64,000 nucleotides of DNA, taken from Candidatus Harrisonbacteria bacterium. GTDB taxonomy: Bacteria; Patescibacteriota; Minisyncoccia; UBA6257; 02-FULL-45-10c. The notes beneath the pieces are model-generated. The model did not search any database. It was not told where the DNA came from and was given only the letters and a program-made list of their open reading frames with translations. The translations under genes were made by a program, and so were the position numbers. Of the stretch, positions 2,295 through 63,036 are shown one piece after another (position 1 is the stretch's first letter; every line of letters starts with the position of its first letter). The stretch lies in the NCBI GenBank assembly GCA_016214655.1, contig JACROC010000005.1, positions 3,078 through 67,077 of the forward strand. The letters are read 5' to 3'.

Positions 2295-2563
2295 AGGACG
2301 TTTACAACCGTAGCGTAGCGTTGGGACCCGTCAAAGCGGGTTTTTTTGGCAGACTTAAATTTAACTTTGCCGGTTTTCATGGCAAAAATTGTATCATCGC
2401 CGCCCAGTTTAACATTAAGTCCGGGCAAGTATTTCGTGCCTCTTTGCCTTACGATAATTTGTCCGGTGTCCACCATCTGGCCATCGGATCTTTTAATTCC
2501 GAGCCGCTTGGACTCTGACTCCCTATTATTTTTTGCCGCACCAACCGATTTAGTATGTGCCAC
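2291..2563 (-). CDS. rpmA: 50S ribosomal protein L27
   Basis: Begins (GTG start) [22 protein letters not shown]..., the canonical L27 N-terminus. The 3' end overlaps the ctp stop by 4 nt (convergent). Confidence 0.9.
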
Positions 2564-2570
2564 ACCATTT

Positions 2571-2650
2571 AGCTGTTAGCTGTTAGCTATTAGCTGTTAG
2601 AAATTTTAATTTATCTAAAAGCCAAAAGCTCAAAACCAAAAGCTGTAATT
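2571..2650. repeat. tandem heptamer array (AGCTGTT)x4 plus partially complementary array (CTAAAAGCC-like) directly upstream of the rpmA start
   Basis: Direct reading: agctgttagctgttagctattagctgttag followed by ctaaaagccaaaagctcaaaaccaaaagct. In the mRNA sense this gives (CUAACAG)n directly before the GTG start of rpmA. Confidence 0.8.
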
Positions 2651-2672
2651 TATTAAGAAATTATAGTACCAT

Positions 2673-2834
2673 ATGACCGATATGTCAAATATGTCTAATT
2701 GGGCTGATAAGCTTAAAAAACGCGAAGTTATCTTATTTTTAATCTTATTTTTGATCAGTTCTCTTAGTTTTGGACTAGGTTATTTGTTGGCGAAACAAGA
2801 AGGAGCGGCGCCTATCATTATTGAGAAACAGTGA
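2673..2834 (+). CDS. possible small membrane protein (about 53 aa, MTDMSNMSNWADKLKKREVILFLILFLISSLSFGLGYLLAKQEGAAPIIIEKQ)
   Basis: Unannotated short ORF in a 295-bp gap with one clear TM helix. No obvious SD. Coordinates approximate. Confidence 0.3.
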   Translation: MTDMSNMSNWADKLKKREVILFLILFLISSLSFGLGYLLAKQEGAAPIIIEKQ

Positions 2835-2858
2835 TAGGACTAATAAGTTCTATAGGAC

Positions 2859-3620
2859 CTATAGGTAGCCTGTTTGTTTCAGCCATTTGATATTTTCCCA
2901 CTCCCAAAGTTTTTTCGCTCCCAGAAATGCCTGAAAATCTTCTTTCCAAAACGGAAATTCTTGAAGTTCAGTAATGCCAGTTAAGTCTGACCATTGGTGC
3001 GCGCTTTCCTCGCAGGGTTTGGATTTTCCTCGGCGGATTTTATTTCTTCCGCCTTTGGGACGCATAGTTGCTTTGCATTGGAGGCAAGTCTTTATTTGGT
3101 CAATGCGGAGAATCCAGCGGGTTTCTAAACTCGGCAATTCTGCGAGAAGCGCTTCAATATAGGCGGAGGTTTGCAGATTATAATCCCGGTAAATGGCTTG
3201 AGAGGTTTTAATGTCCAAAACTCCGAATTTGCCGTCAATTAAAGCCAGGGTGTCTATGGTTCCGGCGTAGCGGTGTTCCGGGTGAAAAATCCTTTTTTCC
3301 ACGAACTCTTTGTCAACGTGGATATTTCGTTCATCCAAGAAATTTAAAAAGCCATTGATGGCCGGCGCAATCTCCACGGGTATTTCCGGTTTTTCTCCGA
3401 CCAGAAATTTTTCGGTAACTTCGTGGATTAAAGTCCCTTCTTTGGCGGAATTTTCCGTCATTTCTCTGGCGGCATTATAACTGGCAGCTTCGCCATAGAA
3501 TCGGTAGAGAGCGGGCTTGGATTTAATTTCCACGATTTTAGTTACGCGCGGATACCAATGACCGTCAATTTCATAACCGCATTTTTCTTTAAAATCTTCT
3601 GCGTTTTTAAAGTCGTACAT
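2859..3620 (-). CDS. PD-(D/E)xK nuclease with Cas4/RecB-like Cys cluster (orphan Cas4-like)
   Basis: Has a D..(D/E)xK core (GTIDTLALIDGKFGVLDIKTS). One N-terminal Cys (KCGYE) plus a C-terminal C-x2-C...C cluster (TCLQCK...KPC) resembles a Cas4-type Fe-S ligand set. No CRISPR array or other cas genes in the window. Confidence 0.55.
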   Translation of the reverse strand: MYDFKNAEDFKEKCGYEIDGHWYPRVTKIVEIKSKPALYRFYGEAASYNAAREMTENSAKEGTLIHEVTEKFLVGEKPEIPVEIAPAINGFLNFLDERNIHVDKEFVEKRIFHPEHRYAGTIDTLALIDGKFGVLDIKTSQAIYRDYNLQTSAYIEALLAELPSLETRWILRIDQIKTCLQCKATMRPKGGRNKIRRGKSKPCEESAHQWSDLTGITELQEFPFWKEDFQAFLGAKKLWEWENIKWLKQTGYL

Positions 3621-17816: not shown

Positions 17817-19304
17817 TTATATTGGCAGTCCGGCCAAGTTATCGGTTATTTTTCCGTCTTGGACGGCTATTTGGCCGTTGACAATCACGTTGACCATTTG
17901 ATTGTCTTTAAACATTGCCAGATCCGCAAACCACCCTTCTTTAACTGTTCCGCGTTTTTCCAGGCCGAAAATCTCGGCAGGAGAACTAGTTATTTTCTGA
18001 ATTGATTTTTCAATTCTGACGCCTTTTTCGGCGGCCATTTTCAGAAATTGAGTGAAGGTATTTAAAGATCGTTCCGGTTTCAGGAGGGCCGGGGAATCTT
18101 TCGGGCTGGCGCTGTTGGAGCCGATCAAAGCGCGGGGATGGAATAAGGCTTCTTTCAAAAGTTCTGAGTTAATATTTTGATGCAGAAATAGCGCCTTCAT
18201 TCTGGTAATCTCCATTATTGCCAGCAAGCCATCACAAATATTCAATCCCCTATTTTCTGAAAATTCTTTTAAGTTTTTTCCTACTATGGAATTATTGTCC
18301 CTGGCCTCCGCGATAATTAGTTTTTTCGGATTTATTTCCGAGTTGCCTAGTTCCTTCAGGATGCGAACGCGATGCCTTTGCTGGCTGATAATAGCCAGCA
18401 TATTTTCCAGTCCGCCATGCTGTGCCCAGGCCGGCAAAAGCGTGTAAATCGGAAGAACGCTGGCGTTAAACGGGTTCATTTCCAGGTATAGATTCGCCTT
18501 ATTTAGGTTAGCATCAATTAAGTCTTTTGCTTCGCGGAATTGGTTTTCCCAGCCGAGTATCGGCCGAAAATGGCTGATAATCACCGATGCCTTGCTTTCT
18601 TTTGCTATTTGAATAGTTTCTTTTACCGATTCGACTAAGCCTCCTCTTTCGTCTCGCAAATGAGTCGCATAAACGCCTTTATATTTTGTCAAGACCGCCA
18701 GTAAATTTTTAATCTCTATATACGGAACATTTTTGGAATGAGAATATCCTAAGCCGGCTGATAAGCCCCTCCCCCCTTCTTTCAAGGAATTGGAAAGCGT
18801 ATTTTTAAATATATCCATTTCCGAATCAGTCAGATCCCGGATTTCTTCCCCGATCAAATCTCGCCGGATAGTGGAGTGGCCGACTAGGGTGGTAAAGTTC
18901 ACGCCCAATCCCAAGCGGCGGAGAACAGATTTGAGTTCGGCGAGAGTCACCCAGCCAACATTGATCTGGTCTGGATCGGCCCATTTCCGGATTGATTTCA
19001 ATGATCCATAAAGCAGCGGAGCTAAAGATGATCCGCATTGGCCGCCGATAATAGTAGTTACGCCCTGAAGCAGAAAATCTTTTTGGGACGGATTGGTGAA
19101 TAAAGTTAAATAGTGGTCGGAGGTTGAGTGGCAATCAATAAATCCCGGCGTAAGCGTAAGGCCCAAGCCATCAATTATTTGTTCGGCTTTCTGGTTCGGA
19201 AAATTACCGATTGCGGAGATGCGATTGTCTTTTATCAAAATATCGCCTTTAAATGAAGGTTGCCCGGTTCCATCGATAATTTGAGTATTTTTGATAAGTA
19301 ACAT
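17817..19304 (-). CDS. amidohydrolase-family protein (D-aminoacylase-like)
   Basis: N-acyl-D-amino-acid deacylase-like architecture (IIDGTG...GFIDCHSTSDH). The usual HxH metal motif is replaced by C-H-S-T-S-D-H. Confidence 0.65.
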   Translation of the reverse strand: MLLIKNTQIIDGTGQPSFKGDILIKDNRISAIGNFPNQKAEQIIDGLGLTLTPGFIDCHSTSDHYLTLFTNPSQKDFLLQGVTTIIGGQCGSSLAPLLYGSLKSIRKWADPDQINVGWVTLAELKSVLRRLGLGVNFTTLVGHSTIRRDLIGEEIRDLTDSEMDIFKNTLSNSLKEGGRGLSAGLGYSHSKNVPYIEIKNLLAVLTKYKGVYATHLRDERGGLVESVKETIQIAKESKASVIISHFRPILGWENQFREAKDLIDANLNKANLYLEMNPFNASVLPIYTLLPAWAQHGGLENMLAIISQQRHRVRILKELGNSEINPKKLIIAEARDNNSIVGKNLKEFSENRGLNICDGLLAIMEITRMKALFLHQNINSELLKEALFHPRALIGSNSASPKDSPALLKPERSLNTFTQFLKMAAEKGVRIEKSIQKITSSPAEIFGLEKRGTVKEGWFADLAMFKDNQMVNVIVNGQIAVQDGKITDNLAGLPI

Positions 19305-19306
19305 AG

Positions 19307-19574
19307 GCGATGTCTAAACTAATATTCTTACTAAATTAAATAATTGATTTTGCATCAAGTTTGAGGCGCGAGGAAGAAATTGTGGGGTTACCCACGTTTC
19401 TGACAAGTAACGAAAAAATTGAACAAAATCAATTATCCCGTCGGGCAAGGCTATTTTATTCAACTCCTTCGTTACTCCTCCTCGCTGTGGTAAAACCACA
19501 AGCTCGTCGTCGCGCCTTGGATTTGGAATAAAATAGCTCTTGTTAATTAGTGATAATATTAGTTTAGACATCGC
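19307..19574. ncRNA. copy B of a 268-nt highly structured intergenic element (candidate novel structured RNA, strand undetermined)
   Basis: Perfect 20-bp terminal inverted repeat (gcgatgtctaaactaatatt / aatattagtttagacatcgc). Internal 13-bp helix (ataattgattttg / caaaatcaattat). Hairpins gtggg-gtta-cccac and tgtggt-aaaa-accaca. Colinear with and homologous to the element at 27036..27303, with compensatory changes in every helix. Confidence 0.5.
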
Positions 19575-22352: not shown

Positions 22353-23939
22353 ATGTTTAAAAAACTAAAATTATTAGTTATTAGTCATTGGTTACTAGTT
22401 GTTATTATAATTATAGCTTCCTTCTTACGGCTCTACAATTTAACTGAATTGCCTCCAGGCCTTTATCCTGATGAGGCTATGAACGGCAATAATGCAGTAG
22501 AGGCGTGGGAAAACCGGGATTGGAAGGTATTTTATGGGGAAAACTTCGGCCGGGAGGGATTATTTATTAATATTCAGAGCTTATCCGTGGCTGCTTTCGG
22601 TAATCAGCCATGGGTTTTAAGGCTGCCAAGCGTCATTTTTGGGATATTAACGGTATTGGGGCTTTATTTCTTTACCAGAGAACTATTTGTGAATTATGAA
22701 TCAAGAATTAAGAATCATGGAGATGATCCAAAAGCCCATAATTCATTATTCAGTATTTATTATTCAGAAAAAATAGCATTATTAGCTAGTTTTCTGCTAG
22801 CTACGAGTTTTTGGCATATTAATTTTTCTCGTATAGGGTTTCGCGCCATCATGGCGCCCTTCTTTTTAACTTGGACACTGTATTGGCTATTATTAGCTCT
22901 TAGAAAAAAACAGGAAGGTCAATGGTCAGGTGTCAGATGTCAGTTGTTGTCAGCCTCGGCCGGCCTGATATATGGTCTTGGTTTCTATAGTTATATCGCT
23001 TATCGCGCCACCCCTTTTCTTGTGGTTTTTATCTTTTGGCTTTCAATGTTTAGATGCGGATGGAAGAATGTTGTGAGGGTCGGTGCGGCATTTGCCGCAG
23101 CCGCGATTTTGATTGCTTTGCCGCTCGGAATTTATTTTTTACATAACCCGCAAGATTTTTTTGGCCGCACAGCCGGCATTTCAATTTTTGCATCGGGAAC
23201 GCCGATTCGCGATCTAGCTTTTAATATTTTAAAAACTGCCGGAATGTTTAATGTGGTTGGCGATTTTAATTGGCGGCATAATTTTGCTGGCAGGCCGGAG
23301 CTTTTCTTCCCGGTAGGAATAATATTTTTGATAGGACTATTTTTTGCAATACGAGATTTAATTAAAAATGCAAAAATCAAAAATCAAAATGACAGTTCGA
23401 AAATTTTCCATTTTCCATTTTCTATTTTGACTTCTTGGTTAGTTGTCGCTGCTTTGCCGGTCGTGATATCTAATGAAGGTCTCCCCCATGCCCTTCGTTC
23501 TCTTTTGATGGTTCCACCAGTTTTTGTCCTGGCTGCAATTGGCGGATTAAAGGTTTATGATTTTTTAAATAACTTGGTCGGGGATTCTTGGTTAAACAAA
23601 TTAAGCTTTTTGTTTGTGGCTGTCCTATTATTAGAAGCGTACTTGGTTTATTTTATGGCTTGGGGCAGGCATCCGACTGTTAAAACTGCATTTGCATATC
23701 GGGATTATTTAATCGCTCAGCAGCTTAATTATTTACCGAAGGAATTGCCTAAATATATTGTAGTAAGCGATGCAACCGGAGTAATTGAGCGGGATAACCC
23801 AATTTCACTCCAATCCGTTTTATTTTTAACTGATACTTTTACTGATACGAAGCGGCGGGAAAAGAATTTTATATATGTTACTCGAGATCAATTTAATTTA
23901 ATATCTCTTCCGAAAAACAGTCTTATTATAAAATTGTAA
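22353..23939 (+). CDS. GT-C glycosyltransferase of the PMT/ArnT family (GT39/GT83-like)
   Basis: Multi-TM protein with the first-loop acidic motif (YPDEAMNG) typical of ArnT/PMT. The ORF track starts at 22305, but that overlaps the upstream gene, so the ATG at about 22353 (MFKKLKLLV) is more likely. Confidence 0.75.
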   Translation: MFKKLKLLVISHWLLVVIIIIASFLRLYNLTELPPGLYPDEAMNGNNAVEAWENRDWKVFYGENFGREGLFINIQSLSVAAFGNQPWVLRLPSVIFGILTVLGLYFFTRELFVNYESRIKNHGDDPKAHNSLFSIYYSEKIALLASFLLATSFWHINFSRIGFRAIMAPFFLTWTLYWLLLALRKKQEGQWSGVRCQLLSASAGLIYGLGFYSYIAYRATPFLVVFIFWLSMFRCGWKNVVRVGAAFAAAAILIALPLGIYFLHNPQDFFGRTAGISIFASGTPIRDLAFNILKTAGMFNVVGDFNWRHNFAGRPELFFPVGIIFLIGLFFAIRDLIKNAKIKNQNDSSKIFHFPFSILTSWLVVAALPVVISNEGLPHALRSLLMVPPVFVLAAIGGLKVYDFLNNLVGDSWLNKLSFLFVAVLLLEAYLVYFMAWGRHPTVKTAFAYRDYLIAQQLNYLPKELPKYIVVSDATGVIERDNPISLQSVLFLTDTFTDTKRREKNFIYVTRDQFNLISLPKNSLIIKL

Positions 23940-26922: not shown

Positions 26923-27035
26923 ACTTCTAAAGTATAGCAGAAATTACTAAGGGCGTGGCCGTGATTGTTGTCAAAAGTTTAAACAAATTGCCTTGGTTTA
27001 TTCTCTGCATGGATCATCATTATATCAGTATATTA

Positions 27036-37662: not shown

Positions 37663-37742
37663 ACAGCGTTTAGCGGTTAGCGTTTAGCGGTTAGGGCAAA
37701 AAAATATTTTCCTAAACGCTGTACGCTGTACGCTGTACGCTA
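37663..37742. repeat. heptamer tandem arrays (GCGKTTA)x4 and (CGCTGTA)x3 forming an imperfect hairpin between alr and ftsQ
   Basis: acagcgtttagcggttagcgtttagcggttaggg ... cctaaacgctgtacgctgtacgctgtacgcta. In the mRNA sense (CUAAACG/CUAACCG)n ends 9 nt before the ftsQ AUG. The distal array overlaps the alr stop. Confidence 0.8.
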
Positions 37743-49582: not shown

Positions 49583-49636
49583 TGTTAGGTGTTGGGTGTT
49601 AGGTGTTAGATAATTTTTCTAAAACCTAAAACCTAA
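49583..49636. repeat. heptamer arrays (GGTGTTA)x3-4 and (CCTAAAA)x2-3 between rpsH and rplF
   Basis: tgttaggtgttgggtgttaggtgttag ... ctaaaacctaaaacctaa. In the mRNA sense (CUAACAC)n ends 1 nt before the rplF AUG. Confidence 0.85.
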
Positions 49637-51422: not shown

Positions 51423-51513
51423 AGGTTAGGGGTTAGGGGTTAGGGGTTAGGGGTTAGGGGTTAGAAAAATTTATTTATAAAATTCTATACCCTCAACCCT
51501 ATAACCTAAACCC
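51423..51513. repeat. (GGGGTTA)x6 tandem array plus C-rich partially complementary array between rpsQ and rplN
   Basis: ggttaggggttaggggttaggggttaggggttaggggttag ... ccctcaaccctataacctaaaccc. In the mRNA sense (CUAACCC)6 ends 1 nt before the rplN AUG. The G-strand has five or more GGGG tracts and is capable of forming a G-quadruplex. Confidence 0.9.
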
Positions 51514-61266: not shown

Positions 61267-61941
61267 CTATAAATAAGGCTGTAACTCATTAATAATTTCT
61301 ATTACTTCGTTTACTTCTTTCGGAGTAAGCAACCCCGGGCGTTCTTTTCTTGCATTCTGGACTATCTTAGCAATTGTTTGTTGAAGGTGCTGTATATTTT
61401 CTTTTGAGATATTCCAAGCTCCCGGAGTAGCCATACCTTCCACGATATCCTGTAGATTGGAAACATCTGCACGATCTTCTTGATGTTCACACGCTTCATC
61501 TAAAAAATTTTCAGTTATTTCTTTTGATAATCCAGCTTGTGCACATGCGCTTTCCATAGCTTTTATCTCTTTTTCTGTTATTTGAGTTCTTGATGCAACA
61601 GTAATATTTTCCTTAGATTGTTTAATTTTTTTGTTGAAATATTCAATTTTTTCTTCCGGCATTTTTTTAGGCGCCTCGTCATCCGTTAAAAAAAGCTCAG
61701 CGGCCATCAATGGAGCAGTTAATGAATTTGTGCGGTACTTACTGCGTTTGCTGGCTAAAAATTTTTCTCGTGCTGCCGGGTCAGTAGCGCTTCTTTTTAT
61801 TAATTCTTTTTGCTGTTCGTCCGAAAGATATTCGCCCGGTTCATCGGGACGATTTAGGAAAGATTTAAAAATTTTTTTGGCTGCTTCAGAGGCTTTCTCT
61901 GATTCCGGAGGAATTTCGAACTTAGGCATATTTTCGTGCAT
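61267..61941 (-). CDS. hydrophilic hypothetical protein (224 aa) inserted between rpsG and fusA
   Basis: Tight spacing: 3 nt after rpsG and 8 nt before fusA. No TM, no known motif. Confidence 0.55.
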
Positions 61942-61944
61942 AAA

Positions 61945-62412
61945 TTATCTTGCAAAATGAGCAAAAGCCCTGTTGGCCTCTGCCATTTTATGGGTATCTT
62001 GTTTCTTTTTAATAGCTGATCCTTCATTTTTGGAAGCTAGTAATAATTCTTCGGCTAATCTTTGCGCCATTGGCTTTCCGGTTTTTTTCCTGGCCGCGTC
62101 AATAAGCCAGCGGGTTGCCAGCATGAATTTGCGCTCTTGCCTTACTTCTATAGGTACTTGGTAATTTGCTCCGCCAACTCTCCGGGTTTTCACTTCAACC
62201 ATTGGAGAAATATTTTCCATCGCTTTTTCAAAAATTGACAGCGGTTCTTGCCCAGTTTCTTTTTTAAGCTGTTCCATGGCGTCATACATTACTTTGGTAG
62301 CCACTCTTTTTTTGCCATCTTCCATTAAATAATTAATAAAACGGCCAAGCGCTACACTGCCATATTGCATATCCGGTTTATGTTCTCTTTGATAATTACG
62401 CTTTTTTCTCAT
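61945..62412 (-). CDS. rpsG: 30S ribosomal protein S7
   Basis: Colinear S7 similarity. Confidence 0.9.
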
Positions 62413-62825
62413 GTTTTTTTAGGTCTTTTTGCTCCATACTTAGACCTTTGCTGTTTTCTGGCCTCTACCCCGCTGGTATCCAAAATTCCTCTTACGATAT
62501 GATAGCGGACTCCCGGAAGGTCTTTAACGCGGCCGCCGCGGATCATAACTACTGAGTGCTCCTGTAAATTATGGCCTTCTCCGGGTATATAAGCGGTAAC
62601 TTCCATACCATTGGTTAAACGGACGCGGGCTACTTTTCTTAAGGCTGAATTCGGCTTCTTTGGTGTAGTGGTAAAAACTTTAAGACAGACCCCTCTTTTA
62701 AAAGGCGAAGCGGATTTTACCGGACGGTTTTGAAGATAATTAAAATATCGCCCCAGCGCCGGAGATTTAGTTTTAGAAACTTTTGTTTTTCGGCTCCCTT
62801 TCATGAGCTGTCTGATTGTTGGCAT
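62409..62825 (-). CDS. rpsL: 30S ribosomal protein S12
   Basis: MPTIRQL...[11 protein letters not shown]. Confidence 0.95.
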
Positions 62826-62967
62826 ACCCGGTGCTACAACTTTGACTGGCGCTTAAAAAATTAAGCGTTAAATCAATCTTTGCAGTACGTATTAATATAA
62901 AATTACTAATTTTTCTTAATATATCCTCCCGGAGCTTATTTGGTCAAAGTTGTAGCTACCGGGCATG
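62823..62967 (-). repeat. copy C2 of the inverted-repeat-bracketed ~145-bp element; its proximal arm embeds the rpsL start codon
   Basis: catacccggtgctacaactttgac (CAT is the rpsL ATG) ... gtcaaagttgtagctaccgggcatg. Internal hairpin cgcttaa-aaaa-ttaagcg. Shares blocks ATAAGCT and GCAAAG..TTGATT with copy C1. In the gene orientation the distal arm region reads TTGACC-18-TATATT. Confidence 0.7.
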
Positions 62968-63036
62968 ATAAAAAATAGTATATCAGATATAAACATAATG
63001 TGTCAACGAAAATAGGCCTTACGGCCTATTATAAAT

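Follow-up and report, generated by a model that had tools for sequence, protein, structure and literature searches.

The stretch of DNA analysed here (the window) comprises 64,000 nt from a Candidatus Harrisonbacteria genome (contig JACROC010000005.1), and in front of rpsL, the first gene of its str operon, lies an inverted-repeat element, C2. C2 is probably a miniature member of a mobile-element family whose full-length form is a nuclease gene enclosed in inverted repeats, a family that would trap host start codons and whose miniatures would move in trans. The arms of the repeat correspond to the two ends of a 95-codon gene for a GIY-YIG nuclease, and all copies compared sit on the native start codons of their host genes.

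Anatomy of the C2 element

Coordinates are those of the window; rpsL and the features of C2 are on the minus strand, and the layout is read in the orientation of rpsL. Read in this way, C2 (62823-62967) has the structure C-ATG-CCCGGTAGCTACAACTTTGAC, 96 nt, GTCAAAGTTGTAGCACCGGGT-ATG-CCAACA. The two arms, of 21 nt each, are the distal arm CCCGGTAGCTACAACTTTGAC (62943..62963) and the proximal arm GTCAAAGTTGTAGCACCGGGT (62826..62846), and the perfect core of the repeat is 14 nt long (62833-62846 and 62943-62956). Together they can form a stem of 25 pairs, with one bulged A in the distal arm, that includes the rpsL start codon (62823..62825), the C at 62967 pairing with the G of that codon. The inverted repeat reported here by the first-pass annotation is real, and an origin as a chance repeat is ruled out by the excess of the core 14-mer (four occurrences in the window against 0.29 expected, a number reached in 0 of 100 shuffles) and by RNA folding (-53.7 kcal/mol, z = -6.9 versus shuffled sequence). 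The other two matches to the 14-mer belong to copy C1 (33776..33923, plus strand), at the start codon of a GT-C/PMT glycosyltransferase gene, which has the same architecture, as had also been noticed. The arms of C1 and C2 are 100% (proximal) and 88% (distal) identical, the interiors 53%, which is the level of shuffled sequence; C1 has a folding z of -6.5, and its version of the inner hairpin described below (A-type) contains two compensatory pairs.

The gene rpsL (62409..62825), identified by translation and homologues as encoding S12 (138 aa), begins with the canonical MPTIRQL, and the proximal arm does abut this native start. The earlier statement that the ATG is not borne by the element therefore holds for the native rpsL start and fails in another respect: the ATG is duplicated, with one copy at each end of the element. 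The rpsL start codon, paired inside the predicted stem, is the 3' copy; the 5' copy is the distal ATG (62964..62966), located by comparing the ends and by alignment with empty sites, and overlooked at first. The GIY-YIG open reading frame (ORF) of full-length family members begins at the distal ATG, whose G is invariant in 15 of 15 arm variants, although A would pair better. Likewise overlooked was a stronger promoter upstream of the entire element. This native rpsL promoter, TTGACA-18-TGaTATACT (63006-62977, 11/12 match), was found by promoter scan; its -35 box, TTGACA (63001..63006), aligns with the -35 of element-free rpsL loci, and its extended -10 box, TGaTATACT (62977..62985), ends 10 nt before the distal ATG. 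The site proposed previously, TTGACC-18-TATATT (62918..62947), is a plausible promoter with a 10/12 match, its -35 box being made by the inner end of the distal arm, and GGGAGG (62930-62925), about 100 nt upstream of the ATG, is indeed too far away for a Shine-Dalgarno (SD) sequence.

The distal arm is homologous to codons 2-8 of the GIY-YIG gene (PGATTL/S..). From the distal ATG a stub ORF of 16 codons, MPGSYNFDQISSGRIY followed by a stop (62916..62966), encodes no nuclease. The 96-nt interior (62847..62942) is of the A-type and 92% identical to that of locus L023, and it includes a hairpin, CGCTTAA-TTTT-TTAAGCG (62850..62867), that adjoins the proximal arm and is, by folding, common to A-type copies. 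A TAG in the proximal arm (62836-62834), 8 nt ahead of the host ATG, terminates the GIY-YIG ORF in full-length members.

Neither a transposase nor a recombinase is present among the large and small ORFs of the window, and no DNA similar to the element was found in plasmid, phage and viral collections. At the Rfam gathering score there is no match for C2, the sole match with E<1 being a generic hairpin at 23 bits versus a 54-bit threshold. A ribosomal-protein leader or another Rfam cis-regulatory RNA is rejected as an identity for C2, since no curated model matches and seven of eleven rpsL lineages are without the element.

Filled and empty rpsL sites

Those lineages come from a comparison of the rpsL loci of relatives whose S12 is 85-95% identical, 11 lineages including the window. 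An element stands precisely at the rpsL start in four (the window, L023, L034-36 and L001-05) and rpsL is without one in seven (L030-33, L037, L038/39, L040, L041, L042/43 and L044). Empty sites consist of TTGACA, 17-18 nt and TATAnT, with the start codon following after 9-19 nt and no SD; filled sites have a homologous promoter, with the distal ATG following after 10 nt, and an alignment of the two leaves a gap of about 140 nt between the two copies of ATG. Because the seven element-free lineages show the same promoter directly followed by ATG, C2 is, on this alignment, an insertion flanked by duplicated (T)ATG and not a conserved regulator of the str operon. In one empty site (L042, 547-549) rpsL begins with GTG instead of ATG. 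Two S12 homologues, P0001 and P0003 (215 and 199 aa), have a duplicated S12 core and are probably assembly chimeras.

The arms at rpsL differ among lineages. Those of L023 are the same as in C2, those of L034-36 have the inner part altered to CAACTGCGAT/ATCGCAGTTG, and those of L001-05 read CCCCTTAGTGAAACTTCGG/CCGAAGTTCTACTAAGGGG. The first-pass annotation had suggested that the element is a shared regulatory module at the head of a core operon, to be checked by conservation of the arms upstream of rpsL in related genomes. Arms that are kept or covary in L023, L034 and L001 agree with that expectation; the seven lineages without an element do not, and come close to the situation that the annotation itself named as refuting it. 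The idea of a module is further contradicted by the presence of the arms on the start codons of 16 unrelated genes, by the identity of the arms with the termini of a GIY-YIG gene, and by assembly GCA_001818705.1, in which the rpsL site is empty (L031), yet a copy is present at another gene (L007).

A GIY-YIG nuclease gene between the arms

The arms are the two ends of a 95-codon gene for a GIY-YIG nuclease of the UPF0213/Slx1-like kind. Read from its distal ATG, the miniature at L013 (MPSATTLTMLFYVYVLESLKDKKMYTGFTSNLRKRINQ...) matches PF01541 with 30.6 bits versus a cutoff of 22.6 (positions 2-32), and the 260-nt element at L008 is a near full-length pseudogene of a GIY-YIG protein (E = 8e-33). 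A composite of the L013 and L008 fragments, used as query, retrieved 328 proteins, typically of 95 aa, such as MPGATTLITFFYVYVLES...RFLAKRLKSYYKSKL. Among the best 120 homologues, at least 64 begin with MP[GS][AT/N]T.., which the distal arm encodes as ATG CCC GGT GCT ACA ACT, and at least 71 end with [QK]SKL, which the proximal arm encodes as TCA/TCG AAG TTG TAG. An intact copy in situ, with a 95-codon ORF, lies at 701-996 of L045. Upstream of it are the stop codon of a PrgI-like gene and tt, then ATG CCC GGT GCG ACA ACT TCG ATC; at its downstream end CAA TCG AAG TTG TAG is followed by CACCGGGT and the ATG of a TraC-like host gene. The full-length element is about 296 bp long, with the first and last codons of the nuclease within a pair of inverted repeats of about 20 nt, and its layout is host initiation signals, ATG, nuclease ORF, TAG, 8 nt, ATG and host gene. 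In two database entries the protein call runs across a tandem junction, ..GTTGTAGCACCGGGT-ATG-CCCGGTGCTACA...

The solved structures nearest to the 95-aa protein are UPF0213 proteins and the structure-specific nuclease SLX1, and the protein scores 22 bits versus the 56-bit cutoff of the NCBIfam model for group I intron endonucleases. An intact member, MBI4991992.1, is encoded in the source genome of the window; it shares a 271,595-bp contig with the S12 protein, MBI4991941.1, from which it is 51 accession numbers apart, and lies outside the window. No description of start-codon insertion or of GIY-YIG genes bracketed by inverted repeats was found in the literature searched, and the element family appears to be undescribed.

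Insertion on host start codons

Public genomes and metagenomes were scanned for the arms, and further copies were collected within the loci returned. Copies occur in Harrisonbacteria and other genomes of the Paceibacteria type within the Candidate Phyla Radiation (CPR), with 33-57% G+C, and are associated with 16 different host genes in 19 gene-by-lineage cases, all 19 on native start codons. The hosts are rpsL, fusA, rplO, rplE, hisS, a murD-like ligase gene, mreB, a pilM/ftsA-like gene, fpg, a class V fructose-bisphosphatase gene, the GT-C gene, and five genes for membrane, secreted or unassigned proteins (including the host at L008). Pfam confirmed the identities of the host proteins, with matches running from profile position 1-3 at protein residues 1-15, so that the start codons mark native N-termini.

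The proximal arm runs into the host start codon as ...GG(T)ATG throughout, and the distal end also carries (T)ATG in all cases but one. The exception is the fpg copy (L022, ~520-536), whose distal end reads ..GCTAA-CCCAGTG, without ATG; here an upstream reading frame may run into the arm. C2 conforms, having ATG at both ends with the 3' ATG as the native host start codon. Most copies have the pair TATG/TATG, and a rare GATG/GATG pair in L008 favours a target duplication of 3-4 bp. A 5-bp duplication, ATGCC, was ruled out by second codons that vary between copies, and the TA duplication of Tc1/IS630-type elements by a mismatch with the element ends.

Ahead of the distal ATG, the copies keep the initiation context that belongs to the host gene. 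This may be a -10 box at a distance of 6-12 nt (the leaderless type), GGAGG and 7 nt (L028), a tRNA 3' end (L013), or, in operon-internal positions, a stop codon that closes the preceding cistron 2-15 nt before the ATG (L020 rplO, L001 fusA and L045). Across the copies compared, no target motif was seen beyond the T at -1. Targeting of the transcription bubble of leaderless promoters was ruled out by the copies behind an SD (L028) and at operon-internal cistrons (L020 rplO, L001 fusA, L045).

Some of the records deserve comment. Those of L008 and L013 are titled 'uncultured Candidatus Saccharibacteria', a doubtful label; for the glyceraldehyde-3-phosphate dehydrogenase of L008, the nearest proteins bear the names Liptonbacteria, Brennerbacteria, Wolfebacteria and Paceibacterota. 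At L007, an ORF with a LAGLIDADG motif (LAYIAGFLDGDGS; 2435-2914, minus strand) adjoins sequence without long ORFs and may be an rRNA-gene insertion of the kind reported for CPR.

Miniatures and the evolution of the arms

C2 has the arms CCCRGTGCTACAACTTTGA/TCAAAGTTGTAGCACYGGG of the family, pairing with each other, and the arm stop codon 8 nt upstream of the host ATG, and between the arms there is no recognisable GIY-YIG ORF. Because only a stub of 16 codons is present, without similarity to that ORF, C2 is to be classed, from its sequence, as a non-coding miniature derivative and not as an autonomous copy. That miniatures do arise from full-length elements follows from L013, a clean internal deletion in which the proximal arm follows immediately on the first 84 nt of the ORF (z = 24.7), and from L008, a decaying full-length copy. 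The A-type miniatures, including C2, occupy seven loci and have a common hairpin beside the proximal arm. Between groups, interiors resemble one another no more than shuffled sequence does, whereas arms are 84-100% identical, and a conserved peptide from the distal ATG of the miniatures was looked for and rejected.

Pairing of the arms has been preserved through sequence change. Among 15 arm variants, pairing holds at 97% of positions, and both sides have changed in 9 of 25 pairs, a result equalled in 0 of 500 shuffles. The variants are genome-specific, both copies in the L001 contig having the same divergent arms around unrelated interiors. Changes in the arms alter encoded residues outside the catalytic domain (TTL versus TTS; KSKL versus QSKL), which places the constraint on the nucleic acid and not on the protein. 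Mismatches of the G-U and A-C types are equally frequent, with no asymmetry between sense and antisense, and an excess of G-U on the sense strand was accordingly discarded as a signal of selection on RNA. A comparison of one host gene in two strains (L014 and L021) found flanks 98-100% identical and interiors differing by 16%, one of the two interiors being a 98% match to the hisS copy (L018) on the same contig, a pattern indicating that copies are replaced by, or converted from, one another. Wherever interiors match detectably, they run the same way with respect to the gene, and no inverted match was seen.

Expression of the element and of rpsL

An element without start signals of its own would be expressed only when lying on a functional host start codon, and this would explain why autonomous copies are found only at start codons, as well as the placement of miniatures formed in situ. 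After finishing the nuclease ORF, ribosomes would reinitiate on the host gene, turning it into a second cistron coupled in translation. SD sequences are nearly absent from the genome, with 8 weak matches among the 64 starts in the window. Many first genes of the window have, 6-12 nt ahead of the ATG, a box resembling a -10, suggesting leaderless transcripts or very short leaders. Intercistronic gaps are short in this SD-less setting, and rpsL and rpsG overlap; translational coupling appears to be the normal mode of starting for operon-internal genes of this genome. The arms, for their part, would form a hairpin or cruciform recognised by the small Slx1-like nuclease, and such recognition would account for arm evolution that preserves structure and is specific to each genome. 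Miniatures would originate by internal deletion and then be moved or converted in trans.

In C2 the route to rpsL by coupling to the ORF would be gone. The native promoter (63006-62977) would transcribe the whole of C2, and the predicted 5' end of the leader falls about 3 nt from the 25-bp stem. Folding predictions give the rpsL AUG a probability of being unpaired of 0.00-0.03 in the full leader, and of 0.65-0.94 when the transcript begins at the internal promoter start or the stem is cut 12 nt upstream of the AUG. Translation of rpsL may, tentatively, proceed from transcripts of the internal promoter, which are without the distal arm, a route that carries the largest share of our expectation. 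Cutting of the stem by RNase III is a possibility of slightly lower standing; unmasking by ribosomes that start at the distal AUG is unlikely, and something else altogether still more so. A hairpin processed by RNase III in the manner of intervening sequences or Correia elements would present some 20 bp or more of uninterrupted double-stranded RNA in a transcript; for C2 a stem of 25 bp is predicted. RNase III and RNase J are retained in CPR genomes (PMC12641178), insertions cut by RNase III are known in CPR rRNA (PMC11270868), and Correia hairpins are bound or cut by RNase III (PMC2649163).

A farther-reaching proposal, plausible but somewhat less likely than not, is that the family is a new class of mobile element whose sole gene is a structure-specific GIY-YIG nuclease of 95 aa without start signals of its own, that integrates at ATG, and to which the host gene is coupled by termination and reinitiation 8 nt downstream. 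On integration the ATG would be duplicated, and the ORF would inherit the promoter and initiation context of the host. The stem of the arms would serve as the DNA substrate of the nuclease and would also make essential host genes (rpsL, fusA, rplO, rplE, hisS and mreB) depend on translation through the element. On such a scheme miniatures such as C2 would need a further way of starting translation where the AUG is enclosed in a 25-bp helix and the genome offers no SD sequences.

Alternative explanations

Several observations weigh against reading C2 as a miniature of a start-codon-trapping nuclease element. Intact loci inspected in situ number one (L045), and the GIY-YIG ORF could be a passenger, nuclease activity and mobility of the element being putative. 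The interior of C2 has no detectable similarity to the nuclease ORF, so that descent from it is undetectable; what assigns C2 to the family is its arms, the duplicated ATG, the 8-nt spacing of TAG and ATG, and the intermediates L008 and L013. No upstream ORF in C2 ends at the arm stop codon, and the coupling design cannot therefore explain the expression of rpsL here; the internal promoter is not general, occurring in 4-5 of 15 arm variants (it is kept in L023, and a similar one is present in L007). Pairing of the arms may, moreover, be kept at the level of DNA rather than RNA. Finally, C2 and the L023 copy are 94% identical over 147 nt, compared with 40 of 79 four-fold sites of rpsL and 59% for the spacer upstream of the element. 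Such identity suggests either that the whole element, internal promoter included, is under purifying selection at rpsL (exaptation), or that it was transferred or converted very recently, one variant having been installed in both lineages by the kind of replacement seen at L014 and L021; a passive relic explains neither. If selection is responsible, C2 could now be an exapted cis-regulatory leader of the str operon, its interior and stem controlling the translation of rpsL or the stability of its mRNA, for example as a 5'-terminal stem that keeps RNase J away or as a site bound by a ribosomal protein. The high identity over a gene with only about 51% of its four-fold sites conserved speaks for this, as do the covariation of the arms, the start of the stem within about 3 nt of the predicted 5' end, and the presence of the element in four rpsL lineages. 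We nevertheless regard exaptation as unlikely, because rpsL does without the element in the other seven lineages, the L034 and L001 copies differ in their arms and, for the most part, in their interiors, the arms and the A-type interior of C2 are found at unrelated genes too, and the replacement of copies seen at L014 versus L021 means that high identity could equally reflect recent conversion.

Were C2 instead an ordinary MITE (miniature inverted-repeat transposable element), moved by a conventional transposase of the DDE or another type, the GIY-YIG ORF would be cargo or a coincidental resident. Its terminal inverted repeats, 3-4 bp direct repeat, lack of an ORF, multiple copies and variable interiors are all as expected of a MITE. 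This alternative is nonetheless improbable: no transposase was found in the window or at any locus, the arms encode both termini of most of the best 120 GIY-YIG homologues, which amounts to a systematic association, and random targeting would not yield start codons in 19 of 19 cases. The inverted repeats could also bound an inverton, in which a recombinase flips the 96-nt segment with TTGACC-18-TATATT and so turns rpsL on or off. In its favour are the recurrence of the repeats at several loci, the promoter-like site that they enclose, and a size near that of known small switches; against this, all detectable interior similarities have one orientation, the promoter-like site is missing from most copies, no recombinase gene is nearby, empty sites and the ATG duplication indicate insertion, and rpsL is essential. 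We consider an inverton very improbable, and retain the derivation of C2 from a nuclease-encoding element as the preferred explanation.

Relationship to known elements

Free-standing GIY-YIG homing genes (phage T4 Seg, I-TevI family) resemble the element in several ways: both are small selfish nuclease genes between host genes that ride on host transcription, decay to pseudogenes and are then lost. Known homing enzymes, however, have a separate DNA-binding domain and one long, gene-specific target, whereas the 95-aa protein of the element is essentially a catalytic domain only. Unlike homing genes, too, the element is found at 16 host genes, has inverted repeats that overlap its own coding ends, and lies always on a start codon. 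A classical homing endonuclease gene is ruled out by the lack of a DNA-binding domain in full-length members and by the many target genes.

The REPIN-RAYT system also consists of two inverted conserved arms around a less conserved spacer, with arms that are uniform in any one genome and vary from lineage to lineage. Its enzymes, the RAYTs, belong to the HUH/Y1 type, and its REPs have a GTAG head on a short palindrome and are extragenic, typically near the 3' ends of genes. The element likewise has a small single-domain nuclease in the same genome, but this is a GIY-YIG enzyme and the position is a start codon.

Correia elements of Neisseria (Correia repeat enclosed elements, CREE) are alike in size (~100-150 bp) and in having terminal inverted repeats of ~20-26 nt; they are transcribed with their neighbours, form long hairpins and can create promoters (PMC2649163; PMC3184786). 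They have a TA duplication, a conserved core and many intergenic positions, whereas the present family has a (T)ATG duplication, interiors that are often unrelated, positions on start codons only, and ends shared with a GIY-YIG gene. Membership of C2 in the Correia (CREE/NEMIS) group is ruled out by the (T)ATG duplication and by a different arm sequence. The REP2 repeats of Neisseria and IR-A/IR-B of Borrelia stand directly in front of many unrelated genes, fused to the ATG (PMC3184786). REP2 has no terminal inverted repeats and brings its own promoter and ribosome-binding site (RBS), whereas the element leaves the native promoter outside and its arms pair across the insert; a REP2-type repeat is ruled out by the terminal repeats, the external native promoter and the lack of an RBS. 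In CPR rRNA genes, insertions that are not introns and encode GIY-YIG proteins have been reported, and hairpin inserts are removed by RNase III without ligation (PMC11270868). These concern the same group of organisms, but rRNA genes as opposed to the start codons of protein genes.

A MITE is generically defined by terminal inverted repeats, a flanking direct repeat, a length below ~400 bp, the absence of a transposase ORF and several copies (PMC3184786). C2 shows every one of these properties. A MITE would also have a longer, autonomous relative with its ends that codes for the mobilising enzyme; the longer element with the ends of C2, at L045, encodes a GIY-YIG nuclease whose part in mobilisation is putative. 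To our knowledge no bacterial insertion-sequence family has a GIY-YIG nuclease as its transposase. The element combines features of MITEs and of free-standing nuclease genes, and there is a substantial chance that it is a new class of element.

If the preferred explanation holds, a GIY-YIG-based element bounded by inverted repeats would join the known types of bacterial mobile DNA, and the many small genes annotated as 'GIY-YIG nuclease family protein' in CPR genomes would be explained. A selfish gene would have solved the problem of its own expression by settling on the start codons of its hosts, core translation genes among them. Close relatives that have rpsL with and without a 25-bp helix at the AUG would constitute a natural test of translation start in bacteria nearly free of SD sequences. 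Annotation is affected as well: at these sites gene callers put starts in the wrong place or extend them, and ORFs were called through the arms (a TTG start at 33894; P0270/P0276).

Other features of the window

Two paralogous intergenic segments of about 160 nt (19305-19563 and 27030-27310) have a common multi-stem fold in which 12 of 50 predicted pairs are changed on both sides, with no real Rfam match, and each is enclosed by longer inverted repeats (I1, I2). In the segment at 19305-19563 a 20-nt arm ends 2-3 nt before the start codon of the gene 17817..19304. The pair looks like an undescribed structured RNA or a second family of repeat elements. In about 230 kb of related DNA there were no other families of hairpins abutting start codons except one unrelated case, at 19304.

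The str operon of the window contains, between rpsG and fusA, an ORF of 224 aa without a Pfam family (61267-61941, minus strand); the counterpart between the same genes in L001 (2895-3311) is 138 aa long, also without a Pfam family. Tandem repeats with a 7-nt period (e.g. GGTTAGG x5.9 and CGACTAG x4) stand in intergenic positions directly beside gene starts, at 51424-51464, 49583-49609, 37665-37741, 33728-33755, 33473-33496, 22371-22408 and 2569-2600, and one of them sits just upstream of copy C1.

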